From the NCBI GenBank assembly GCA_048213135.1, contig PS015249.1, positions 80,537 through 100,536 of the forward strand: a stretch of DNA of 20,000 nt. The letters run 5' to 3'. This stretch comes from Reclinomonas americana ATCC 50394. Taxonomy: Eukaryota. The notes under the pieces were generated by a model. The model was not told the origin of the DNA. It worked only from the letters and a program-made list of their open reading frames with translations, and ran no database searches. Each line of letters starts with the position of its first letter. Within the stretch, counting starts at the first letter, position 1. The position numbers and the translations under genes were made by a program. Below, piece after piece: positions 2,473 through 19,775 of the stretch.

Positions 2473-4380
2473 TCACCTCGCCGGCTTGCGCTCCTGCAGC
2501 GTGAAGCGACGCCACTGATTGAGAGTGTGCCAGTCGTGCACCGCGCGACCACGCAGACAGGAGGCTCGAGCCGTCTGCTTCCACTTGTGAAACACAGGTT
2601 CGGCACTCAGCTCCTGCATGCACACTCCGTGATCGAGCACCCACAGCGGTCGCCTGCGTGATGAATGCGGATTCCAGGCGGCCGCCACGGCCGAGAAGGT
2701 GGAGCCGGCCGTGAGTACCAGCTGTGATGGGTGGGGGAGAATGGGAAAGAGAAAGAACAAAAAAAAAAAACAAACAGGATGCGGGGGTGAGCGCAACTTG
2801 TTCGGCGCGGCTGAGAATCACCAACTCGACAAAGGCGTCCATGTAGCCACGCGCCGAGTCGCGGCTGATCGAGTGCGCCGGCAGCAGCACTCTGTCGTGA
2901 CCAAAGAGCGTCGGCGCAAGGTCGCGAAATAGTGTGCTGTCGGTGGCCACGAATACGCGCACACGATCGGGATGGTCGAGTGGTAGCTGGTGCCGGCCGA
3001 GCCAGTCGACGCAGTGACGAAAGGTGGCCAGGTCGGCCAGCGTCAGCTTGTCGCCGTAGTCGCGCTTGCCCTGAGGCGAGGCAAAGGGTGGGGGTGGGGA
3101 GAGGGAGGAGAGAGGGAGAGAGGGAGAGGGAAAGGAAGAGAGAGAAAGGGACAGGGAAAACGAAAAAAGGAGCGATGAAAGGAAGAGAGAGGAGACAAAG
3201 AAAGCAAAGGATGTGTATATCGCGCAGAAGGAAAAGAAGAGAAGAAAAGAGGCAGGGAGAGGAAGCAGGAGAGGGGAAAGAGAGATGGATTGTGCACGTG
3301 CTCTCATGCAGGAGCGATCAAAGGCATCCAGCCCTGAGTCAAAGCAAGGGAGTGAGAATGAGGGACAGGGAAAGGAAGAGAGAGAGAGAGGAGAGAAAGA
3401 AAGCAAAGGATATGAGTATCGCGCAGAAAGAAAAGAAAAGTAGGTCGAGGGAAGAAAAGAGGCAGGGAGAGGAAGGAGGAGAGGGACAAGAGAGGATAGG
3501 ATGTGGGCCACGAGTTGCAGATGTGCCCTCACGCAGGAGAACAAGAGGAGCGATGAATGGCGACCTGCAATACTCAAAGAACATGGCAATGAATGTGGAG
3601 AGAAAAGGACGTGACCCACACTTGCACGTGTGCTTTTCAGTCGGAGAAAGAGGAGCGATAGTAAGCAACTGACCATGGAGTTGGAGCGAACGTGAATGCC
3701 GACGAGCGATGTGTTTGGCGGCACAGAGGTCGACAGGTACTCGTCGACGCGTTGTCGTATCTGCAGAGCGTAGAGGGTGAGACAGTGATGGAAACAATCG
3801 TGGGCAGTGGGAGAACCGACCTCGGCGCGCACTGCAAAGAGCGAGCGCATCACGTGAAAGAACAAGCGATCGCCGTAGCGCCCAAACACGCGCTGGAACG
3901 GGAGGTGGGGATTGTGTCGCAGTACCTCGACATGATACTGATCGCCCCACGACACCATCACTCGTCGCTGGTGCGCACTGTCGACCATGCCGTCAGTGTG
4001 ATCACAATAACACGACGGACGACACGGTGAGGGCGTGTACCTCGTTACATCATCGCAGATGAGCTCTGCCAACGCCGCCTCGCCGTAGTAATGCGTATTC
4101 AACTCACTCTGCTCGCTGCGGGAGGGAGGGAACAAGAGAGAGGGAGGAGTGAGGAAACGAGAGTAGAAAGGGGAGGAGTGGGTGATAGCAGAAGGGAGGA
4201 GTGCGAATGGAAGTGAACGGGAGTGAGAGAGGAAGGTGAGAGGGAAGGAAGGAAGCATGAGAAGCCAATGAAGCAAGGCAGGTAGAGGGTTGTGAGAAGC
4301 GATGGAGAACAGAGACCGAGAGAGTGGAGAGAACGAGAGAGGGTGAGAGGGAGAGAGGAAAGATGAGCCACAGCGCCTTC

Positions 4381-5443: not shown

Positions 5444-7624
5444 ATGCGCACCACCACACGTGGTGACAAGTCCTCAGCAACCGCCTCTCTGAGTGTGTCT
5501 CGCAAAAGCGCACAGGTAGAGGCGCGTGTAGACAGCGCAGAAGGCGTCATGGCAGAGGCGAGCGCGAAAGTGACACCAGCGGTCAGTGTGTGTGTGTCTG
5601 TCTCTCTCTTGTGCGTGTGTGTGAGCATGCATTGTGACTTTCATACCTCATGGTCGCCACTGGGAAAGTCAATGAGGAGGCTGTCGGAGGCAGTGGCGCA
5701 GGTGCAGCGCACACTGGTGGCCAAGATCGAGCAGGCCAAGGAGGACGCCATCTCGCTCCTCGATGAGCGCTTTCATGCGCTCACTGACGAGTGCGCAGAG
5801 TCCTTGTCTCGCACGCAGCAGGTGTGTGTGTACGCGCGCGCGTGTGTGTGTCTACAGTGTCTCACGCGCAGAGAGGAGCAGAAGCTGACGCTGGAGATGA
5901 CGGCGACTGCCAATGGCGGAAGCAATGGGAAGGAATCTGTGTCGGCCACGGTGTCTTCGTCCTCTTCTGGAGGCTCCTCCGCGTCCTCCTCTGACGAGGC
6001 GCACAAGAAGGACGATGATGCTGAGGAGCGCGAGGAGCGGCGGCGACGCGGCTTGCGTCGCAAGGAGTTTGTGCCGCGGGAATCGGTCTTGTCGGTCATG
6101 CTGCAGGAGGAGTCGTTCCGCACCATTGCCAACATCGCCATTGCCTCGCTCATTGTCTTTACGCTTTCCGTGCTTATCACCGACTACACGGAGACCGGGC
6201 GTCTCATTGATACCACGCTCCTGGAGGTTTGCTCCCGGGCACTCGCACCACTCACGAATTGTGATGGCGCTGACGCGTGTGTGTGTTTGCCTGTCGCAGT
6301 GGGTGTTGGAGATGATGCCGACTTTCATGCGCTTCTGGTTGTGCCTCTACCTGGCCTCGTACCTCGTGCTGGTGCTGGCACACAAGGCCGCCACCACCAC
6401 CGGCTGGCAGCGGAAGTTGTGGTTGACGACGTACATTGCGTTCCAGTTCTCCACCTTTGTCTCCAGCGCGTTCTTCGTCCTCAACCTGAACTCGCGACCG
6501 CCGCTGGCCGCTGCGCTGCTGGCCGAGCAGGCGCGTCTGTGCATGAAGGTGAGCAGTTTGCAGATTCGCATTGGTTGTTTTCCTATATCTGTGGGTGTGC
6601 GTTTTGGAAAGCCTGACACTGCTGTGTGTGTGTGGCGACGCGTCACAGATGCATGCGTACTTCCGCGAGAAGCTGATGTGGAAGACGATGAAGCACTCGC
6701 CGCCGCCAGTGACGCCGGCAACGTGGCATTACATTGGCTCGGAGATTCGTCTGTACACCTACTTTTTGTGGGTGCCGACGCTCGTCTACCGCTCCAGCTA
6801 CCCGCGCACGGCGCGCATCCGCTGGGGTGCCGTCGTGCTGCGCGTGCTGGAGGCGCTGGCCACCATGCACATGACGTTCCTCATCTTCAAGGTGAGTTGT
6901 CTTCCTCGCCATTGATTCTTCCAGTCCGTGCCGTGACATTTGTGTAGGCCGTGCTGCCGACACTCGGACGGGTGGAGCGCATCACCGATGTCAGCTCGTT
7001 CCTGACGACGTGGTTTGCCCACATGGGCCCTGGCATTGCGCTGATGTTCCTGACGCACTACGTGGTGCTGCACGCGTGGCAGAACCTGTTTGCCGAGCTG
7101 ACGCGCTTTGCCGACCGCCAGTTCTACGAGGACTGGTGGAATGCGCGGACGTGGGAGGTGCTTTTTATTTCCTTTGCATTGTCGTGCCGGGTGGTGGTGG
7201 AATGGTTCTCACGGCGGTAATTTTGCAGGATTTCTACCGCAAGTGGAACGGCCTGGTGCACGACTTTATCAAGGAGTACGTGTATCTCGACCTGCATCTG
7301 CTGCTGCACTGGAAGCGCGCGGTGGCACTGCTGGCGGCCTTTGCCATCTCGGCCATTGTGCACGAGTTCATCATGTCGTTCGTCTTTGGCTACTTCTACC
7401 CGATCCTGTTTGTGCTGTTCGCCGGCCCCGGCGTCATTCTCGTGTGGCTCACTCGTCGCGTGCGCAACCGCTGGTGGAATGTCTTCATGTGGTTGTCGCT
7501 GTCGGGCGGCAACGGCCTCATGATGGTGCTGTACTCGCTCGAGTGGCACGCACACAAGAATCCGCGACCCATTACCGAGTGGTGGCATTCGCTGCTGCCG
7601 TACTCGTGGCGCGCGCTGGTGTAA
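5444..7624 (+). CDS. SOAT: MBOAT-family sterol O-acyltransferase (SOAT/ACAT-like), about 577 aa
   Basis: Exons: 5444-5581, 5669-5821, 5882-6226, 6300-6548, 6649-6891, 6948-7157, 7229-7624; total 1734 nt. Motifs: KEFVPRESVL, MK|MHAY, YFLWVPTLVYRSSYPRT, FAELTRFADRQFYEDWWN, FYRKWNGLVHDF and the catalytic His in SAIVHEF, all typical of SOAT/DGAT1-type MBOATs. The start codon and the first two acceptors are less certain. Confidence 0.92.
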
Positions 7625-7785: not shown

Positions 7786-10700
7786 TCACTCCTGTTTTCT
7801 CCGCGCCGCACGCAAGCGACGGCGGTGGACCTTGGTTGCCTCGCGCCAGTAGCGGTACACTGCAGAAGGTTGACGTGAGAGGAGAGAGATGAAGCAGTGA
7901 TCGTGGCAGTAGCAGCGCGCTCACCGACAAAAAGATAGTACGCAAACGAGCAGAGCAGGATGCCGGCTGCGAGATGGAGGAAAAAGTCAGGTTCCGCAAT
8001 AACGATGGGGATGTACACACGGATCGGCACCAACCGAGCGGGTAGGTGGCCAGCGACGGTCGCACATCGCAGTACGAGTCGCAGTCGATAATGTCGTTAT
8101 TTTGGCCGTACGTGAATTGGGAGGCGTTGAGGCGCAGGTGATCGCACAAGCCAGTGAAGGACTTGGGGCCGGTATTGGCGCTGCAGCTGTAGTGGATGGG
8201 CAGGAAACCGATCGATAGGTACGTGGACATGAGCATGCCGACCAGCACGATGCCGCCGACCAAGTGGAATAGAGCCACGCCTGCGTGTTGCGCGACAAAG
8301 AGAGAGGGAGGGAGAGAGGGAGAGGGAGGGGCAAGGGAGAGAGAGATAAAGAGAGAAGGAGGGAGAGAGGGGAGAGAGAGGGAGAGAGAGGGACGCAGAG
8401 AGGGGGAGAGAGGGACGCAGAGAGGGGGAGAGAGAGGAAGGCAGAGAGGGGGAGAGAGAGGGAGGCAGAGAGGGAGAGAGAAGGGAGAGAGAGAGAGGGA
8501 GTGTGTGTGATTTGTGAGGGTGTAGTGAAAATTGAGAGACGCCGAGTGAGCTGTCGACTGACCCAGACGATTGTTGACAAAGGCTGTTTGGCACAAGGAC
8601 GGGTGAGGCGAGGACGAGAGGTTATTCGGGAAAACGGCAGCGACAACGCACCCACAGTGTATCGCAGAATAATCGCAGTCATGAAGATGGTGCAGATGCA
8701 GGCCGTCGCGACCACAAACGAGTCTGTGCGCGGAAAAAATCAGACAAGCAGGACGACTCGATTGGAGAGAGCGGTGACGAAACAAGCAAATGGCAAATTG
8801 TTGATGCGCGGTGAGCACACGGATTGTGTCATGGTCAACGACGGGATGATGTTTTCTGGCAAAGCAGGTGAGAGCAGAACAACCAAGCGGTTCCAGAAGG
8901 ATGCAGCAGCGTACCGAAGGCGCCGCAGTTGACGGTTGGAGTCATCAGCAGAATCGACATGGACGAGAGGGAGATCACCAGCTTGAACAGTGCGCTTACG
9001 TCCTGCACAATCGCAAAGGCCACTCGGAGACGACTCTGTCGCTTCTCCAACTCCTTGACGGTGATGGCCACTCGCACCTCGCCGCCTTTCCAGTCGCCAG
9101 TCGTCTCCCCCTCCATCGACGACTGATCGCTAATGTCATCGTCGTCGCCATTGTACCTTTGCAGGTCTCTTCGCCGGCTCTCCATCTCCGTTTCGGCGTC
9201 TGCGGCGGCGCTGGTGCCAGAGTAGAGCGACACACCAGATCCGGTTTCCAGCAGGCGCGCATCCTCTGCCGACGGGGTCACATTGGGCTCGGGAGTCACG
9301 TGCGGACGCCGACGGCGACCGCATCCGCAGCAGGCGGCCACACCGGCCTGCGACGGCGGCATGGGGCGCTGGTACTCGAAGGCCAGGTACGCCATGTACA
9401 GGGTGCTGAAGATGAAGCTGAAGGCGAGCATGTAGACCTTGTAGAGGGAAGGGAGATTAAAGAGGGGTTCACAGAGATACAAGGCAGGAGAAGGCAGACA
9501 GCGAGGACTCACCTCTGGGGCATTCCTCGGGCTGCATCTGTGGGGAACAATGCAAAGCACGGACAGGATGAGGTCTTCTCTCACCATGCGAGAGACCAAC
9601 ACACACAAACACACCCATTGCTGCAGCCGTACTGCGCGGTGCACGGCTGCCCGTTGGACAGTGGACATGAAAACTGCTGCGATGATGACGCGGCGGTGCA
9701 GCCGATATCGGGGTACAACTGCGTAATGTTCAGCGACAGCTGCAAGCTGAAGCATTGGTCGGAGATGAGCTGTGCGCACACACATAATCACAGGGAGGGT
9801 GTGTGTGAGAGAGAGAGAGAGGGCCACAGAAAGACAACGCGGAATGCAAAGGCGAACAAACCACTGGATCCTCGCAGTGGTACCCCGGCGCCAGCAGCAG
9901 CGTGTAGAAAATGGCGGAGATCTTTGCAATGCCAAACACCAGTGACAGCGCGGTGATCCCGTAACTGACGCAGGATATGATGAGCGACAGCACCACTGAA
10001 AAAAAATCGACACACGACGCACCCAATGAAGACGGCCCATCGCTGGAACCACCCGAACGTCTTCAACAGAATCGAGAAGAAGAAGAAGATTTGGTTGGCG
10101 ACGACGAGGGCGATGAAGACGTCCTTAAGCGCCGCCACGTCCACCTTGACGTTGCAGAACTGCGAGGAGGAGGAGGAGGAGGAGGAGGAGGAGGAGGAGG
10201 AGGAGGAAGAAGAAGAGGGAGGAGGAGGAGGAGGAGGAGGAGGAGGAGGAGGAGGAGCAAAATGGGAAGAAGGGAGATAAGCAAGGAGGAAGGAGATGCA
10301 ACGAGAAGAAGACGCAGAAGAAAAGGCGATGGAGAAGAAGAAGAACAAGAACAAACAAGAACAGGAACAGGAAGAAGAAGAAGAATAAAGAGAAGAAGAG
10401 GAATAAGGAGGAGGAGGAGGAGGAGAACAAGAACAAGAAGAACAAGAAGAAGTAGAACAAGAACAACAAGAACAGCAAGAACAAGAACAAGAAGAAGATT
10501 AGAAGATACAGAACACGGACACAGTGGAGAAGATGAAGGAGGAGGGCGAATGGGAGGGAGAGGAAGATGAACAGCAAGTCAGTGAAGAACACAGTGCAAC
10601 GACGCGCAAGAGCCACACTCAACGTTGGGATTACCGCGCATCTCTGCACCGGTAATGACCTTGGTGGTGGGCCGGTTCAGTGAATCACAAAAGTACAGAC

Positions 10701-10880
10701 TAAAGTCCGAGCATTGCATCGCCTCGTCGCTCCTGCATGAAGAAGAAGAAGTAGAATCAGAGAGAGAGGAAAAGGGAAGAGAGAGAGATGCGTCATGAAT
10801 GATGAGATACGTGTGACATTGCATCCTTGTGTGTGAGAGAGAGAGTGTGTGTGTGTAGGGGTGTGTGTGTGTGTGCGGAG

Positions 10881-10914
<34 letters not shown>

Positions 10915-11350
10915 GAGTGTGTGTGAGTGAGAGAGTGAGAGAGTGAGAGAGTGAGAGAGTGAGTGAGTCAGGGAGTGTGTGAGAGTGAGTGAGAGACAAT
11001 GAGTGAGTGAGTGAGTGAGCGTGTGTGTACCTGTGTGTAAGTGTGTGCGGAGGTGTGTGTGTGAGAGAGAGAGAGAGGAGGAGTGTGAGTGAGTGATTGT
11101 GTGTGTGTCTTTGTGTGGTGTCTTTGTGTATCTTTGTGTGTCTTTGTGTGTGTGTGTGTGTGTGTGTGTGTCAGTCTTCGCAACTGCAGGAGCAACACAA
11201 TGGAGATTGCAGTCAAGAGCGACTTGAGCTGTCAATCACACATGTGAGTTGCATGACACACTCACTCACTCACTCACACTCGTACTCTCTCACCTGCACA
11301 GTGATGTCTTGTGCAAACATAAACACGCGGTTCCATCGCGAAGACAACAT
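7786..11350 (-). CDS. Uncharacterised 8-TM membrane protein A (two tandem 4-TM units with Cys-rich loops), about 559 aa; paralog of 11426-15672
   Basis: 14 exons (minus): 11350-11294, 11228-11185, 10732-10624, 10159-10023, 9964-9862, 9769-9615, 9537-9513, 9437-8915, 8855-8784, 8723-8652, 8583-8563, 8280-8035, 7966-7925, 7859-7786; total 1680 nt, in frame. Starts MLSSRWNRVFMFAQDITVQLKSLLTAISIVLLL and ends VYRYWREATKVHRRRLRAARRKQE*. The model is cross-validated by end-to-end alignment with the paralog. Confidence 0.85.
8297..8500. repeat. GA-rich low-complexity tract (intron of membrane protein A)
   Basis: Nearly all-purine GA/GGA run containing a repeated GGGACGCAGAGAGGGGGAGAGAG unit; it is a polypyrimidine tract on the sense strand. 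Confidence 0.85.
10164..10570. repeat. (GAG)n/(GAA)n/(GAACAA)n compound microsatellite (intron of membrane protein A)
   Basis: Directly visible; lies in intron 10623-10160. Confidence 0.9.
10828..11171. repeat. (GT)n/(GA)n/(GAGT)n compound microsatellite with a duplicated GTGTGTGCGGAGGTGTGTG...GAGGAGGAGTGTG unit
   Basis: Directly visible; the unit occurs at about 10869 and about 11041; lies in intron 11184-10733. Confidence 0.9.
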
Positions 11351-11425
11351 GATTGCAAAGAGAAACACGAGAGGACAAACCCCAGTTTGTGAGGAGTGCT
11401 CTCTCTCTCTCTTTGTCCTCTTGTG
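11351..11425. promoter_or_regulatory. Putative bidirectional promoter / 5' UTR spacer between head-to-head paralogs
   Basis: 75 bp between the two divergent ATGs. Inverted repeat CACGAGAGGACAAA (11366-11379) / TTTGTCCTCTTGTG (11412-11425) matches at 13 of 14 positions. Small internal stem ACAAAC-ccca-GTTTGT (11375-11390). Promoter function is inferred from position only. Confidence 0.6.
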
Positions 11426-11556
11426 ATGGTGTCTGCGTTCTGGAGACGCACTTTTATCTTTGTGCAAGATGCGAGTGTTATGGTGAGAGAGAGTGTGTGA
11501 GAGAGGAAACTGACAAGATGCTGACACTGTCATGTGTGAGATGAGTGTGTGTGTGT

Positions 11557-11632
<76 letters not shown>

Positions 11633-11984
11633 TAGAGTAGAGTAGTAGTAGTACGTACGTACGTACGTACGTACGTACGTACGAACGTACGTACGTACGA
11701 CGTACGACGACGACGACGACGACGAACGTANNNNNNNNNNNNNNNNNNNNNNNNNNNNNNNNNNNNNNNNNNNNNNNNNNNNNNNNNNNNNNNNNNNNNN
11801 NNNNNNNNNNNNNNNNNNNNNNNNNNNNNNNNNNNNNNNNNNNNNNNNNNNNNNNNNNNNNNNNNNNNNNNNNNNNNNNNNNNNNNNNNNNNNNNNNNNN
11901 NNNNNNNNNNNNNNNNNNNNNNNNNNNNNNNNNNNNNNNNNNNNNNNNNNNNNNNNNGACGACAAACGAACAGACGAGTACGAC

Positions 11985-12050
<66 letters not shown>

Positions 12051-12196
12051 TACATACATACATACATACATACATACACACACTCACTCACTCACTCACT
12101 CACTCACTCACTCACACAGAGAGAGAGAGAGAGACGAGTGATGGGAGAGAACTGACTGCTTGCAGACTCAAACGATGCGGAGTGACATGCGCACAG

Positions 12197-12238
<42 letters not shown>

Positions 12239-15200
12239 AGTGATGAGAGAGAACTGACTGTACAGCCTTAGAATGGTGCAGAGTGACTGTGTAGACTCAT
12301 CATGCGCACACACTGAACGTGAAACATCGCTCCACTTCCTTCTCTCTGACTCTTCTCTATTTCTCTCTCTCTTATCTCGCTCAGGCCAAGTCGTTTCTGT
12401 CATCGGCGGCCGTGTTCCTCGTGCTTCACAATCAGGAGGCGGTAAAGTGCCCCGACATGACGTTGGGGTTTTGTGATTCGAAGCAGAAGCCGGTGTTGCG
12501 GACGATTTCTGGGTCTGATCTGCAGCATTCGCCGTCGGTGAGGAGGGAAGGGACAGGGACGGGGAGGCAGAGGGAGGATCTCTCTGTATGCTCACCTGTC
12601 TTTGCAATTGTCGAGGTTTCTTTGTGACTGTTTCTTCTTGCCCCTCTGGCGTTCTTTGCATCTGTCTCTCGAATCTCAGTGGCTTGTATGGCCTCACGTT
12701 CTTCCCCTTCTCTTGTTCTTCGTGCGTGTCTCTCTCCTCTCGTCGTGGTCTCTCATTGTCTTTGTGATTGCTAGCTTCTTCATTGCAGCTGTTTCTCTTC
12801 TCTCTCTGTCTTTCTTCGGCTGTTGCTTTGTCTGTCTCTCCTGCCTCCGTGCTCAGTGTTGCCGTTGTCGAGGAGACGCTTGGTATGACTGTCATCTCGT
12901 TTCCCTTCTTCTGCTCTTCGTGTCTGTCTCTCGTCTCTCCGTTGTCTGTGTGGCCACAGTCGATATGACTGCTGGTTTCTTGGTATGGCTGTTATCTTCT
13001 TTCCCTTCTCCTGTTCTTCGTGTCTGTCTCTCGTCTCTACGTGGTCTGTTTGGCCACCGTCGAGCACGTGCTAGCTTCTCGCTCTGTGGCTGGCATCTCG
13101 TCTCCTTTCTTCGGCTGTGACAGTGTCTTTTCGTGGCCTGTGTGGCACCGTCATGGTCTTTGCGACTGCGGGTATCTTCGTTGCAGCTGCTTTTTCTTCT
13201 CTCTGTCTTTCTTCGGCTGTTGCTTTGTCTGTCTCTCCTCCCTCCGTGCTCAGTGTTGCCGTTGTTGAGGAGACGCTTGGTATGGCTGTCATCTCGTTTC
13301 CCTTCTTCTTGCTGTGACTGGCATCTCGTCTCCTTTGTCTCACGTCTCTACGTGGTCTGTGCTACGAGCTTCACGGCTGTGTGGCTGCCGACGTCTTGAT
13401 ACGGCTGTCAACTTTTTCCTTTCTCCTGCTCTTTGCGTCTGTCTCCGTGGTCTGCTTGGCCACCGTCGAGCACGTGCTAGCTTCTCGTTGTGGCTGGCAT
13501 CTCGTCTTTTTTCTTCAGCTGTGACAGTGTCTGTCTCCCGTCTCTTCGTGGTCTGTGTGACACCTTCATGGTCTTTGCAACGGCGGGTATCTTCTCTTCT
13601 CTTCTCCTCTCTTTGCTGATTTCAGCCTCTTCCTTCCTGGTCTGTTCTTTGACCTTCCTCCTCCTCCCTCCGCAGTACTGCAACGTGGTGTACGACACGG
13701 CCGGTCTCATGGAGACGTACGTGGTGCTGGCCGTGGCCAATCAACTCATCTTTCTGACGGCCATTCTGTTGCGCACGTTTCGACCATTCGCGGCCGCCGC
13801 CACCATCATCGGGTGTGTGCGTGTGTGACAAATCGCAAGAAGAAATGATGATCTCTGATCCCATTTCATCGCAGTTACACGGTGACAGTGTTGTCGGCGT
13901 TGTTTGGTGTGGCACAGTACTCTCTGGTGTACTACCTGCCGTTCCTGAGGGCACGTTTCAAGTGCTATGTGGATCAGGTGAGTCGCCGCCGTTACCATTT
14001 CCCCTCTCTTTGTCTACACATTGCCTCACTCGCGTGTCCAGTTTACCAGCACCAACTGTACCGGCTTGATGATATCGATGAATGTCACGCAATTATATGC
14101 CGACGTTGGTTGCTCGGGCTACTACGGCAGCCAGACGCCCATATGTCCATACACCAACAACTGCATGACAACCTATTCGTGTGGCAAGTGAGTGAGTGCA
14201 GTCTGCGAACATAGAGCAAGAAACGCATTCTCTCTTACTCTGCTTTTCACAGCTGCCAGGCCTTTGTGCCGACCGAAGTGTTTCTGCTTTCCGTCGCATT
14301 CCTCGTCTCCTGTGAGTATGCCACACACACTGGCACTCATCGTGCTTTTCCTATCTCGCCTTACAAGTTCGCGTCCCCCTTCACCGCACGCGCAGCGTTG
14401 TATGTGGCGTTCCTGGGCTTCGAGTACCAGCGCAAGATACCGCCAGACATGGAGTGCTCGTTTTCCGACTTTTGGCGCGACTGCACGTGTCGGCGGAGGC
14501 GAAAGAGTGCCAAGGATCGCGATCAGCTCTTGGACGGTGACAATGCCGCGGTGGTGACTGCCACGGTTGCGGGTATCAATCAGCCCGCCGACGGTGAAAA
14601 CACGGTGGTGGCGGTGGTGGCGACTCCCTCTGCAGCAGCAGTAACCGCGGCGGCGGCGGCGGCGGCGGCAAGAGATCGGCAAGAGGAAGAGGAGGAAGAC
14701 GATGATGGACAGGAGGGCAAATTGCTGGCGATTACCGTGCAGCAGCTGGAGATCCGCCAAGGCATTCTCCGCCACGCCTTCGGTCTCATGTCGGACATTA
14801 CGTCGCTCGCCAAACTCGGACTCACGCTCGTCTCCATGTGGTTCCTCACGTTGAGCCCGAATGTTCACTGCTTCGATTATCGTACGTTCATCTACTCCCT
14901 GTCTTTCATCAGACGGTGAACTGACTGCATTGCCGTGGCTCGCAGAGGGCGTTATTGCCGGCTACACCATCCAGAGCAGTGTTTGCAGACCGTTCACGCT
15001 CAACAACCTCCCCGTGGCCTACACTTTCATGGTGGGCACGGCGTGCATTCTGCTGCTGTTCATCTCGTGCATCGTATTGAACTACACTGTCGCGTTCGTG
15101 GAGAACCGTCTCGGTGAGTGTGTGGCACGGGCGACTTGGCCATCGCTGTGGACAGGGAGATTTATTATTTGCATGTGCAGGTGTCGCGCTGTTCCACGCC

Positions 15201-15672
15201 GTTGCCGCCACACTAATGTTGTTCCTCCTGCTGTCCACCTACATTACGGCATACTTTGTGCCGATGTTGTACGAGTGTTACGGTAACAGTCCGACGCGCA
15301 CGTATGGCGGCATCTGCAAGCACAAGAAAGTCGACGCTACGACGCTGAAGGTTCCCGGCGTCACCGGCACCATCGACTGCGACCAGCAGTGCACCATGGG
15401 CGTCTCATCGGCCACTCTTCCACTCAGTGCGTGCCCTCCCTCGCTGTGCGTGCTTGTGTTTTCTAATGTGGCTGACCGTGCTCCGCAGTTGCCATTGCCA
15501 TCTCCTCGTACGTCTACATGCTTGTGCTTTGTTGCGTCTGCTGTGCATTACACCGACTGTATTCGTGTCATCTCACCGTCGTCATGTGCGCCACTCAGTG
15601 TTCCGGTACTGGCTGTCAGCGAAGCGAGTGGCTATCCGGCGGCATCGTGAACTGGCAAGGAAACTGGCATAA
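11426..15672 (+). CDS. Uncharacterised 8-TM membrane protein B (two tandem 4-TM units with Cys-rich loops), about 556 aa; paralog of 7786-11350
   Basis: 11 exons: 11426-11482, 12385-12537, 13676-13812, 13875-13977, 14042-14187, 14253-14311, 14396-14881, 14946-15113, 15181-15426, 15489-15530, 15599-15672; total 1671 nt, in frame. Starts MVSAFWRRTFIFVQDASVMAKSFLSSAAVFLVL and ends LFRYWLSAKRVAIRRHRELARKLA*. Six exons have the same length as in paralog A (57, 137, 103, 246, 42, 74 nt). Confidence 0.85.
11544..12260. repeat. (GA)n, (CA)n, (TACA)n, (CACT)n microsatellites flanking an assembly gap (intron 1 of membrane protein B)
   Basis: Directly visible. Also a short duplication GAGAC[G/A]AGTGATG[G/A]GAGAGAACTGACTG at about 12131 and about 12233. 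Confidence 0.9.
11731..11957. other. Assembly gap (N run)
   Basis: 227 N, intronic under the proposed model. Confidence 1.
12620..13620. repeat. Degenerate tandem repeat, unit about 400 bp, about 2.5 copies (intron 2 of membrane protein B)
   Basis: A block of about 105 bp (TCTCTGTCTTTCTTCGGCTG...CTCGTTTCCCTTCTT) recurs at about 12803 and 13200; TTGGCCACCGTCGAGCACGTGCTAGCTTCTCG at about 13050 and 13456; CATGGTCTTTGCxACxGCGGGTATCTTC at about 13152 and 13567. Confidence 0.85.
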
Positions 15673-16013
15673 GGATCACATAGAATGAATAGCAACAATC
15701 AAACAAGAGTTGGCAAGGGACGCAACCCTGCTTTCGTTGACCATTCCCGTGTCTCCTTTGACCCTTGTGCATCTCCCAGTGACCCTTGTACCCGGCCGTG
15801 CATCGATCCTGGCATCTATGACTCTTCCCTTCGCAGGACAACTTAGAGGTAAAGGTTGGTCAAAGAATCGCGTGTTTGCAACAACATACGGGCTTCGGAT
15901 CCAGATCGTACGCACACAGCAGCACTTTTCAATCACAGTCCACCTGGAGGCATCTTCTCCAACAAAACGTCGCGTCCGATCGCATCCATCGCATCTTTTC
16001 GTCGATCGCAATC

Positions 16014-19000
16014 ATGGGCAACGCGTGCGGCGCCAGTGTGCCTCGCGTATCCGTTCGCCGTCTCGCCCTGCACTCCGTCCCCGCAGAAAGCGCCACTGAC
16101 ACAGGCGACTCTTCAACAGATGCTCTCCGAGTTGCTTATGACAAAAGACCCGCTCTCTCTCCTGCTCACTCTCTCACTCTCGCATGACAACAGTCGGGGC
16201 ACGTGGCAGTGGCCATTGACGCACATCGCGTTCTCATGTTTGGCGGGCATGTGGAGCACAAGTCGTCGACTTCCAATCGTCGACACGCGCACCAGCGCAG
16301 TGATGGAACGGGAGCGCCTCCAACGCGAGTGGAGTGTGAGATCACTGATCATCATCATCATCACAACAGTAGTCATGCAGGTCTTTCATGAAAACAACAC
16401 AGTGACAGATAGTGTGTTCGGATCTCTGATGTGAATGATCGTGCAGTGGATCACACCGAGGCAACGTTCTCCAACGACCTGATGGTGATCGACACGGAGT
16501 TTCATGAGAGAAGGCGAGTGGCGTGGAAGATGGAGGCGGGTGAGGCGCCACCGGCTCCGCGAGCGCGATGCACGTTGACGGCGTTGGAGTTGGGTGGCAG
16601 CAGTGGATTTGTGCTGTGGGGTGGCCAGTTGGGACCGAGGGCGTTCAGCAATGAGACGCTGTGGTTGCAGTTTGCTGATGGTGAGCAGAGGGGGGAGAAA
16701 GGGGGACAGGGGTAAAGGGGAAGGGAGGAGAAGGGAGGGAAGGGAGTAAGGGAAGAGGGAACTGAGATCATCTTGGGTCGTCTGTTTAAATTATGCTCTT
16801 CGCAGTGAGTGCCACCGAGATGCAATGCAAGGCCATACAATTGGAAGGCGCGGTTCCAACGCCACGATGTGGTCACTCCTGGTGAGTTTCTCTCCCTTGT
16901 TCCAATTCCCCCCCTGTACCACTTCATTCCTCACTCACTGCGTTTCTTCAGCGTGAGGTATCATGACAAACTGGTAATATTTGGTGGCTACGACGGTCAG
17001 CAGCTCCTGGCCGACATGTACAGTATCGATATAGGTTGCGTCACTCTCTCTCCACTGCCCCCTCTAAGAAGAAGTGCCGCGCCTCACCCGTTGCGAGCAG
17101 AAGCACGCACAAGCGAGGTGCTGGAGCCGCATGGCACACCGCCAATGGCTCGCTGTGGTCACGCGGCTGCGATGATATCTCCCCACGTCATGCTCGTGTT
17201 TGGTGGCATGCAGCCGGAGTGGCCGTGGGCACCGCGAGCGCACGTGTACGATTTTGGTTCGTGGGATTTTTCCTATTTCGCTCTCGTCTTTCTCTCACAT
17301 GCATCCGCCTCTGTGCAGACAGAAAACGATGGCGTGCCGTGCACTTCCTTGGACGCATTCCACCGGCCGTCGCATACGCCTCGTTCACCAAGGTCGCCGA
17401 GGGTGGCTTCTTGCTGGTGGGCGGCGAGACGGTGCACATGACGGCCAGCGAGCATCTGCATTATCTGTCGGTGGACGGCATGCACTGGTCGCAGGTGAAG
17501 CATTCGTGGCGGCGCGGAAAGGCACCGCGTCGTTTCGGCGAACAGGTGGTCATGCTCGGCACGGATCGCGGCCTGCTGTGCGGCGGCGAGGATGACTTTG
17601 GGCCGTCGGACGACGTCTACGAGATTCGCCTGGGTTTGTGGATTGGCGAGCTGTTTTGTTTCCCCATGCTTATTATTAACACGTGCGTGTTACAGCGTCA
17701 AGTGTGGCCGCAGCACGAGCAGCAACCGAGCATGGTAGGCGTGCAATCTCCACCGGTGACACGGCATTTCGCTTTACTTACACTCTTCTCTTCGTCTTTG
17801 CGCAGCGGAGCACACGGAGAAAACGGCAATGCACATTGCGCGCGTCGTGTCACGTGGCTCCCTAAACCACTTGGTCATGGAATGGGATGGTGCACGTCTG
17901 CCCAAACACTACACGCAGCTGCGCGTGCTGCACCGAGCGCCCGGAAAGATGGCTTCCGGTGTGTGCACCACCACCACCGCCACTCGTTTGACTTTTCCCG
18001 TACTCACACTACGCTCACAGTGGCCAGCGAGGCCGTCATCACACCGGGTGCGGGGGAACATAAGCGCCTGCGTGTGGAGCTGCCGCTGCATGAACCCGGC
18101 ATCCACATGCTTCGGCTGGAGGCCTTGGCGCACGTGCCAGCCAGTCGCAGTATCACAATTCCCATCATGGCCGGCACAACGGGTGCTGCGTCTGCTGCTG
18201 CCGCCGCCGCATCACATGCAACCACGATCGGCACGCTTCCGCACTCGGACGATTCCACCGCCGCCGCCCTCGCCTCCTCCTCCTCCTCGACCTCGGCCAC
18301 CGACGTGTGGCTGCTGCGACACATGTCGTCGAGTGGCGGCGGCGGTGGTGGCGGCATGGAATCTGCGCCGTCGCTCGAGTGGATCGCCTCACCTTGGGTC
18401 CGCATCCGTCGCCGCAATCGCGCCTTCCGCGACGGAGTCGAGCACGAAAATGAGGGAGACGACGACGACGATGACGACGACCTGGAGCTCGACGAGACAT
18501 CGCCCTCCCCACCAGTCAAAGGNNNNNNNNNNNNNNNNNNNNNNNNNNNNNNNNNNNNNNNNNNNNNNNNNNNNNNNNNNNNNNNNNNNNNNNNNNNNNN
18601 NNNNNNNNNNNNNNNNNNNNNNNNNNNNNNNNNNNNNNNNNNNNNNNNNNNNNNNNNNNNNNNNNNNNNNNNNNNNNNNNNNNNNNNNNNNNNNNNNNNN
18701 NNNNNNNNNNNNNNNNNNNNNNNNNNNNNNNNNNNNNNNNNNNNNNNNNNNNNNNNNNNNNNNNNNNNNNNNNNNNNNNNNNNNNNNNNNNNNNNNNNNN
18801 NNNNNNNNNNNNNNNNNNNNNNNNNNNNNNNNNNNNNNNNNNNNNNNNNNNNNNNNNNNNNNNNNNNNNNNNNNNNNNNNNNNNNNNNNNNNNNNNNNNN
18901 NNNNNNNNNNNNNNNNNNNNNNNNNNNNNNNNNNNNNNNNNNNNNNNNNNNNNNNNNNNNNNNNNNNNNNNNNNNNNNNNNNNNNNNNNNNNNNNNNNNN

Positions 19001-19775
19001 NNNNNNNNNNNNNNNNNNNNNNNNNNNNNNNNNNNNNNNNNNNNNNNNNNNNNNNNNNNNNNNNNNNNNNNNNNNNNNNNNNNNNNNNNNNNNNNNNNNN
19101 NNNNNNNNNNNNNNNNNNNNNNNNNNNNNNNNNNNNNNNNNNNNNNNNNNNNNNNNNNNNNNNNNNNNNNNNNNNNNNNNNNNNNNNNNNNNNNNNNNNN
19201 NNNNNNNNNNNNNNNNNNNNNNNNNNNNNNNNNNNNNNNNNNNNNNNNNNNNNNNNNNNNNNNNNNNNNNNNNNNNNNNNNNNNNNNNNNNNNNNNNNNN
19301 NNNNNNNNNNNNNNNNNNNNNNNNNNNNNNNNNNNNNNNNNNNNNNNNNNNNNNNNNNNNNNNNNNNNNNNNNNNNNNNNNNNNNNNNNNNNNNNNNNNN
19401 NNNNNNNNNNNNNNNNNNNNNNNNNNNNNNNNNNNNNNNNNNNNNNNNNNNNNNNNGTGTGTGTGTCTTTTCTTGTCTGGCAATTGCTGACCCCCTTTTC
19501 TCACAACAGGAAGCCGCAGCACTGGTGCGTCCCCGTACAACTCACTGTCGCGTGTCGGCAGCCGCGCGCGCAGCCGCAGTCGCGACGCTGCAGTGGCGCG
19601 TCGTCTCGGGACATCTGCCGACTTGGTCCTCATTGAGCACTACGTCGACAGTGGTGCCTCTGCGCCAGTCGCTCCCGCCAACGCCAACGCAGGTGCAGTG
19701 GTGGTGGGAAGCCTCTCCGACAGCAGTCTGCAGGGAAGCCCTGTGGAGCAGGGCCGTCTGCCTGCCGCGTGTTAG
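16014..19775 (+). CDS. Kelch-repeat (six-bladed beta-propeller) protein with N-terminal MGNAC acylation-like motif and low-complexity C-terminal region
   Basis: Exons: 16014-16130, 16194-16335, 16447-16680, 16806-16881, 16952-17034, 17101-17256, 17319-17633, 17696-17734, 17806-17958, 18021-18521, then the gap, then 19510-19775. Six kelch GG motifs (MFGG, LWGG, IFGG, VFGG, LVGG, LCGG), several preceded by PR-x-x-H-type motifs (RSGH, PRARC, PRCGH, ARCGH). The last exon joins in frame across the gap if 18522 is a donor G; further exons could be hidden in the gap. Confidence 0.85.
18523..19456. other. Assembly gap (N run)
   Basis: 934 N, inside the kelch gene. Confidence 1.

Follow-up and report, generated by a model that had tools for sequence, protein, structure and literature searches.

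The window analysed here is a stretch of 20,000 nucleotides (nt) of Reclinomonas americana ATCC 50394 (contig PS015249.1, positions 80,537 to 100,536 of the forward strand), and its positions 7786 to 15672 carry two genes in a head-to-head arrangement, gene A on the minus strand and gene B on the plus strand. We consider it likely that A and B are two real and intact genes, that they are inverted duplicates of each other, that the product of each is composed of two modules of four transmembrane (TM) helices (4+4), and that neither has a relative detectable with exon-sized queries. The two proteins are paralogs far beyond chance. In a blastp comparison they have 218 identities and 328 positives over 573 positions with an E value of 3e-132, extending from residue 1 to 555 in A and from 1 to 554 in B, and a global alignment has identical residues in 218 of its 538 aligned columns (40.5%). 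An earlier reading of this DNA from the sequence alone (the sequence-only reading) had described two opposite-strand genes whose products align end to end. This description stands, with A at 557 amino acids (aa) where about 559 had been given, and B at 556 aa. It also stands that the duplication is old, since the identity is about 40%, and that both copies have kept open frames.

The gene structures agree to a similar extent. Nine of the ten introns of B are at the same aligned position and in the same phase as introns of A; A has three more than this shared set, and the position of one intron differs by about 12 codons between the two genes. There are 22 cysteines in A and 21 in B, and 19 of them are aligned. 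The other residues of the loops differ, so the observation in the sequence-only reading that the loop cysteines were conserved despite divergence was correct. Identity between A and B at the three codon positions is 0.52, 0.63 and 0.43, highest at the second and lowest at the third, which is the pattern expected if both copies have been under constraint at the protein level. The GC content at third codon positions (GC3) is 0.78 in A and 0.74 in B compared to 0.52 for the introns, which supports real coding sequence in both. A tblastn search for a third copy in the window returned just the two loci and two chance matches (E 0.35 and 0.98).

The splice models were built by coordinates, using the sequence itself and the comparison of the two paralogs. 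Gene A has 14 exons running from 11350 down to 7786, and gene B has 11 exons from 11426 to 15672; the frames are open over 557 and 556 codons across these 25 exons. The exons are small and do not show up as open reading frames (ORFs), as had been remarked. Of the 16 peptide strings that the sequence-only reading quoted, 14 are contiguous six-frame translations, each found at a single place within 7786–15672 on the strand given for it. The other two, 13 residues long and ending in GVALFH, cross an exon junction; their halves flank an intron in each gene and become complete once that intron is spliced. All 10 introns of B are GT-AG, as are 12 of the 13 in A. The remaining intron, after exon 2 of A, would use a GC donor (GC-AG, with the GC at 11187). 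An alternative donor for that exon is a weak GT 9 nt upstream, which keeps the frame and removes three residues of helix 1. Where splice sites were chosen that restore the frame, homology is also restored and exon lengths come out equal between A and B (137, 246, 42 and 74 nt). Three other possibilities were ruled out. A 27-nt intron upstream of A exon 5, ending at a nearer AG, would put the gene out of frame. For the last intron of B, a length of 32 nt is too short, and both this choice and read-through at the same place lose the conserved motif at the C-terminus. A run of N (11731–11957) falls inside intron 1 of B. Coding sequence is not hidden there, as the A and B proteins align across this point without a gap. 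The window is eukaryotic DNA, rich in microsatellites, with short GT-AG introns and third codon positions that are rich in GC.

Two of the introns could be retained without loss of the frame. Intron 6 of B (14312–14395, 84 nt) and intron 7 of A (9438–9512, 75 nt) are multiples of three without an in-frame stop, and retention would add 28 or 25 residues, respectively, in or beside helix 4. In the alignment, some 12 codons separate the two. Most of the sequence in the long introns of A and B is microsatellite (8299–8501, 10164–10498, 10877–11171 and 12879–13063), with (AG)n-like arrays, (GAG)n/(AGA)n arrays and arrays of (GT)n/(GTGA)n. Intron 2 of B contains a 100-nt unit in 1.9 copies. These intron microsatellites account for the strong skews of the window in GC and AT.

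TM segments were called by a 19-residue hydropathy window with a cut-off of 1.6. All eight segments of the A product pass. In the B product, six of the eight homologous segments pass, while TM1 (1.49) and TM5 (1.53) fall just under. The eight helices that had been claimed for both proteins are therefore all present in A by hydropathy, and in B six of the eight exceed the cut-off. An Ala-rich low-complexity stretch in the cytoplasmic loop of B also passes and was judged to be spurious. TM1 starts at about residue 16, and the loops are 35–80 aa long. The odd-numbered loops of A have 16 cysteines between them (3, 7, 2 and 4), and no cysteine is found in the short even-numbered loops. In loop 1 the cysteines are spaced C-x7-C-x22-C, in loop 5 they are spaced C-x16-C, and in loop 7 the pattern is C-x12-C-x20-C-x3-C; loop 3 has one N-glycosylation sequon, which is conserved between A and B. 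Helices 4 and 5 are connected by an acidic, low-complexity, indel-rich linker of about 110 residues, and the C-terminal tail of A has 10 Lys or Arg residues against 2 Asp or Glu. From the loop cysteines, the charge of the tail, the loop-3 sequon and the hydropathy, we predict that the cysteine loops lie on the outer or lumenal side and that the N-terminus, the linker between the modules and the basic C-terminal tail are cytoplasmic. A and B would then presumably be glycoproteins of the secretory pathway or the plasma membrane, with up to eight disulfides stapling the ectoloops. On the side predicted to be cytoplasmic, a short way past helix 4, both proteins have three cysteines and then four arginines (A residues 244–247 in exon 8; B residues 239–250 in exon 7), and this cluster may be a putative lipidation site or a membrane-apposed patch.

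The 4+4 architecture is a new feature, going beyond what the sequence-only reading had observed. When the N-terminal half was compared to the C-terminal half in hhalign, with profiles of two sequences each, helices 1–4 were homologous to helices 5–8 over 193 collinear columns (probability 89.9, E 1.7e-6, score 46.9). Two reversed profiles scored 14.5 and 15.0 as controls, and 30 column shuffles scored at most 16.7. With each half cut in two, the matching sub-blocks scored 34.7 and 26.1, compared to 14.5 and 14.0 for the crossed pairs and 9.9 and 12.9 for pairs within a half, so the repeating unit is the 4-TM module. In all four copies of the module, the first helix has a Phe, an Asp and a Lys at its start, a single cysteine follows helix 1 and another follows helix 3, and helix 4 is preceded by a C-x3-C pair and followed by an aromatic/basic motif. 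MAFFT, run on the four modules together, misaligned TM2–3 against TM6–7, and its alignment was set aside in favor of the one from hhalign. The internal tandem duplication predates the gene duplication that gave A and B.

The descent that we propose would begin with a 4-TM module. A short amphipathic stretch would come first and lead into the helix with the conserved Asp and Lys; the module would present two loops with conserved cysteines on the same side (after helix 1, before helix 2, after helix 3 and as the C-x3-C before helix 4) and would close with the aromatic/basic motif after helix 4. Tandem duplication of this module would have produced a protein of about 557 aa with 4+4 = 8 TM helices, encoded by one intron-rich gene. 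Later, but still long ago, an inverted duplication centered in the 75 nt between the present start codons would have turned this ancestral gene into A and B. The spacer contains a 14-nt inverted repeat with 13 of 14 bases matching (arms within 11355–11379 and 11412–11436), and of 1000 mononucleotide shuffles one reached 13/14. The repeat is in keeping with an inverted duplication centered in the spacer. Other inverted repeats around the start codons were discarded as microsatellite matches. The head-to-head position by itself says little about function, because a simple inverted duplication yields the same layout.

All searches for relatives used single exons (23–174 aa) or two-row exon alignments as queries. 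At this exon level, the sequence-only reading was right that no family is recognized, whether in Pfam, in PDB sequences or in the protein and contig collections. In Pfam, none of 17 exon pieces of A and B reached a family cut-off. The same scan recognized a 131-aa exon of an MBOAT-family gene upstream (E 4e-13) and a Kelch ORF downstream. On the Ala/Glu-rich linker, a match to Ribosomal_60s scored 21.5 bits where 28.1 were required; it and the sub-threshold matches to GDSL-like lipase, DUF4337 and DUF3606 were dismissed as compositional or due to chance. Four exon queries against PDB sequences gave nothing under E 0.4. A word-index search of a collection of 5.8 billion clusters returned 3646 candidates for B exon 7 (probably from low-complexity crowding), 144 for B exon 9 and 9 for B exon 8, none of them significant. 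A HMMER profile of A exon 12 and B exon 9 (81 aa) run against 1.84 billion representatives had one match (E 8.6e-4), which was rejected as a repetitive low-complexity protein of 158 aa. In the ESM Atlas, the best score for B exon 9 was 0.89, to generic transmembrane fragments and below the level of 0.9 taken as a lead, and A exon 8 had no usable match. Pattern scans of metagenome, viral and prokaryote contigs confirmed 0 of 335, 0 of 83 and 0 of 63 matches, and a fourth scan confirmed 1 of 24. This one confirmed match, to a contig of a Planctomycetota metagenome-assembled genome (L001, 5001–5066), covers 22 residues of helix 2 at 59% identity and is confined to the helix; it lies antisense to a bacterial ORF of 335 aa and was rejected as chance. 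Since an 81-aa piece at about 30% identity is below threshold, the blanks rule out close relatives in these collections and not distant ones.

Several points weigh against the reading of A and B as intact inverted duplicates encoding 4+4 TM proteins without detectable relatives. The exon boundaries of both genes are ones that we infer, and one intron of A requires either a GC donor or a weak GT donor. TM1 and TM5 of B are below the cut-off, the topology derives from a simple hydropathy window, and the repeat was found with two-sequence profiles. Exon-sized queries could overlook a known fold, or a relative as distant as about 30% identity. The window's own proteins are absent from the results of the 5.8-billion-cluster search; the organism is apparently unrepresented in the protein collections, and possibly its lineage is too, so the lack of relatives may in part reflect sampling. 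The conserved polar residues discussed below are the single ground for weighing a pore or transport role against a scaffold. Some of these points could also be taken to mean that one copy is nonfunctional, either untranscribed or a recently decaying pseudogene, or that part of a model is a splice artifact fitted to the paralog. The donor of A exon 2, several weak donors (GTTGAG, GTTTCG, GTGGTT and GTTGCG), the guidance of the models by the A/B alignment and the assembly gap that B crosses are in keeping with that. We find it highly improbable against the open codons of both genes, their matching exon lengths, the nine introns in common, and the high GC3 in both with the second codon position most conserved and the third least. 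It is doubtful, though less so, that A and B belong to a known family or superfamily of the tetraspan type (claudin/PMP22, tetraspanin, MARVEL or large-pore channels) which the exon searches were too weak to reach. The query pieces were short, and the plan of the module, with four TM helices, two disulfide ectoloops and cytoplasmic termini, is that of several 4-TM families as described in the available parts of the literature. On the other side, the sub-threshold Pfam matches are to unrelated families, exon-sized pieces of the neighboring genes were recognized in the very scan in which A and B were not, and neither A nor B has a CCG in its ectoloops or a GLW anywhere, and their cysteines are spaced differently from those of connexins.

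The sequence-only reading had further suggested that A and B are co-expressed subunits of one complex. The 75 nt between the start codons, with the inverted repeat among them, must be shared or overlapping regulatory sequence for the two promoters; both copies have stayed intact since an old duplication, and the loop cysteines have been retained where other loop residues differ. The collagen IV gene pairs provide a known case of head-to-head paralogs with co-assembling products, going by the available portions of PMC12141075 and PMC2120565. Against this, the layout is what an inverted duplication directly gives, without any need to invoke selection, differential expression is reported for a head-to-head collagen pair in the available portion of PMC2120565, a pseudo-dimer could form from one chain with its two modules, and the Pfam scan of exon pieces gave no family-level link to connexins, innexins or other junction proteins. 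We therefore regard co-expression from a shared bidirectional promoter and assembly into one heteromeric complex, be it a channel or a cell–cell junction, as unlikely. As to what the proteins do, a role as a pore, in transport or in ligand binding seems somewhat more likely than a role as a purely structural, tetraspan-like scaffold, with other roles making up the remainder. We lean this way because of polar residues conserved within the helices, namely Asp and Lys in TM1 and TM5, an Asn-Gln in the middle of TM2 and a His at the start of TM7. It would be a long shot to combine all of this into a new family of pseudo-dimeric 4+4 TM proteins from a poorly sampled lineage, in which the stapled ectoloops, the Asp/Lys and the Asn-Gln form a pore or docking surface and the gene pair encodes the two subunits of a single heteromer, be it a channel or a complex for cell contact. 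The observations are equally compatible with in-place duplication of an ordinary membrane protein specific to the lineage. In eukaryotes that have been sampled thinly, orphan multi-pass membrane families are common, as are local inverted duplicates. If A and B are truly unrelated to known families, two fused 4-TM modules with cysteine-rich ectoloops would be a new architecture. Membrane proteins of the tetraspan type, several of which act as channels, junctions or membrane scaffolds, form a short list to which it would add. The pair would also be a clean case for asking whether head-to-head paralogs with start codons 75 bp apart are co-regulated subunits.

Table 1. Positions in the window of the exons of genes A and B, the spacer between them and the assembly gap within gene B.
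Feature	Position	Strand	Description
Gene A exon 1	11294..11350	-	Start codon 11350-11348; 19 codons; GT donor, phase 0; homologous to B exon 1
Gene A exon 2	11188..11228	-	Most of TM1; AG acceptor, GC donor (uncertain); following intron absent from B
Gene A exon 3	10624..10732	-	Loop 1, with 2 of its 3 cysteines
Gene A exon 4	10023..10159	-	Third loop-1 cysteine, TM2; 137 nt, the length of B exon 3
Gene A exon 5	9865..9964	-	TM3; acceptor chosen gives a 58-nt intron and restores homology with B
Gene A exon 6	9615..9769	-	Cysteine-rich loop 3, conserved N-glycosylation sequon
Gene A exon 7	9513..9537	-	25 nt; next intron 75 nt, in frame, stop-free
Gene A exon 8	8915..9437	-	TM4, long acidic low-complexity cytoplasmic linker, TM5
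Gene A exon 9	8784..8855	-	Loop 5
Gene A exon 10	8652..8723	-	TM6
Gene A exon 11	8563..8583	-	21 nt
Gene A exon 12	8035..8280	-	TM7, loop 7 with 4 cysteines; 246 nt, the length of B exon 9
Gene A exon 13	7925..7966	-	TM8; 42 nt, the length of B exon 10
Gene A exon 14	7786..7859	-	Basic C-terminal tail; stop codon 7788-7786
Spacer between start codons	11351..11425	.	75 nt; 14-nt inverted repeat
Gene B exon 1	11426..11482	+	Start codon at 11426; 19 codons
Assembly gap (N)	11731..11957	.	In B intron 1; no alignment gap there
Gene B exon 2	12385..12537	+	TM1, loop 1
Gene B exon 3	13676..13812	+	TM2
Gene B exon 4	13875..13977	+	TM3
Gene B exon 5	14042..14187	+	Cysteine-rich loop 3
Gene B exon 6	14253..14311	+	First part of TM4; next intron 84 nt, in frame, stop-free
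Gene B exon 7	14396..14881	+	End of TM4, low-complexity cytoplasmic linker, TM5
Gene B exon 8	14946..15113	+	Loop 5, TM6; block best conserved with A
Gene B exon 9	15181..15426	+	TM7, loop 7
Gene B exon 10	15489..15530	+	TM8; more obvious downstream GT sites break the frame or give a 32-nt intron
Gene B exon 11	15599..15672	+	Basic tail; stop codon 15670-15672

The pair is flanked by recognizable genes. Upstream of A, on the plus strand, is a gene for an MBOAT-family acyltransferase (6948–7166 and 7229–7621, stop codon 7622–7624), whose last exon matches the family in Pfam at E 4e-13 and the previous exon at E 0.003. The MBOAT gene ends 162 nt before the stop codon of A, so these two genes are tail to tail. 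Downstream of B, a plus-strand ORF (16809–17438) matches Kelch_1 at 22.2 bits (cut-off 20.1) along with several Kelch/beta-propeller families; the gene probably starts near 16000 and runs into the second assembly gap. Further upstream, a minus-strand open frame of 698 codons contains two conserved-looking coding pieces (2777–3073 and 3686–3988) with a Ser/Leu/Pro-rich repeat translation between them and no Pfam match at E ≤ 1. The assembly gaps, at 11731–11957 and 18523–19456, are two runs of N that mark the window as draft scaffold, and the first of them adjoins (GA)n, (GTAC)n and (AC)n arrays.

Among known membrane proteins, several families have motifs that can be looked for directly in A and B; Pfam statements here refer to the 17 exon pieces. 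Connexins have three conserved cysteines in each extracellular loop at fixed short spacings, and the Pfam profile, the loop cysteine counts and the spacings are all unmatched. Innexins and pannexins have two conserved cysteines per extracellular loop; of the loops here only loop 5 has two, and there is no Pfam match. Tetraspanins have a small first loop and a large second loop with a CCG motif. The sole CCG is at residue 244 of A, in the predicted cytoplasmic linker, with none in B and no Pfam match for either. Claudins and PMP22 are marked by a motif of the W-GLW-C-C type in the first extracellular loop; GLW occurs in neither A nor B, and again Pfam has no match. The two-pore and TOK-type potassium channels also have eight TM helices, with pore loops carrying a G-[YF]-G selectivity signature. 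A single GYG is found, at residue 115 of A inside TM3; it is not conserved in B, and there is no Pfam match. Finally, the pentameric "Cys-loop" receptors have a large N-terminal extracellular domain with a signature disulfide loop, followed by four TM helices. A and B are not such receptors, because they have no N-terminal ectodomain, and they have no Pfam match to them. The "Cys-loop" label given to the pair in the sequence-only reading does not extend to this receptor family.

The closest likeness in overall plan is to the 4-TM families with disulfide-bonded ectoloops, among them connexins, innexins, CALHM, tetraspanins and TM4SF (available parts of PMC2132700, PMC5146279, PMC8560582, PMC10814125 and PMC13539156). 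As far as these describe them, the connexins, innexins/pannexins, CALHM, tetraspanins, claudin/PMP22 and TM4SF share with the A/B module its four TM helices, cytoplasmic termini and two cysteine ectoloops. The connexin extracellular loops are about 34–37 aa in the available part of PMC2132700. CALHM has four TM helices and four conserved extracellular cysteines forming two disulfides, in the available part of PMC8560582; the modules of A and B have at least five conserved loop cysteines each, and exon-level sequence found no Pfam or PDB match to CALHM. A and B differ from all of these in having two modules fused in one chain through a cytoplasmic linker of about 110 residues, in lacking any sequence match by exon pieces in Pfam or PDB, and in cysteine numbers (3, 7, 2 and 4) and spacings. 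The signature motifs familiar from these families are also absent from the A/B ectoloops.

For the arrangement of the genes, the nearest comparison is to the collagen IV pairs COL4A1/A2, A3/A4 and A5/A6, which are head-to-head paralogs with a short bidirectional promoter and co-assembling products (available portions of PMC12141075 and PMC2120565). A head-to-head collagen pair is reported to be differentially expressed (available portion of PMC2120565). Like A and B, the collagen IV pairs are paralogous genes placed head to head. The proteins are unrelated, and co-assembly and co-expression are established for collagen IV only, so far as those portions go. A further difference is the spacer between the start codons, which is only 75 nt in A and B. 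For the protein architecture, we know of no described 4+4 family with cysteine-rich loops, from a check of the literature that was not exhaustive on this point. Membrane proteins with pseudo-symmetric halves produced by internal duplication are a general class, mostly transporters and channels with other helix counts. A and B resemble them in the homology of their N- and C-terminal halves, and since the two halves have the same predicted orientation, the modules would pack as a parallel pseudo-dimer.

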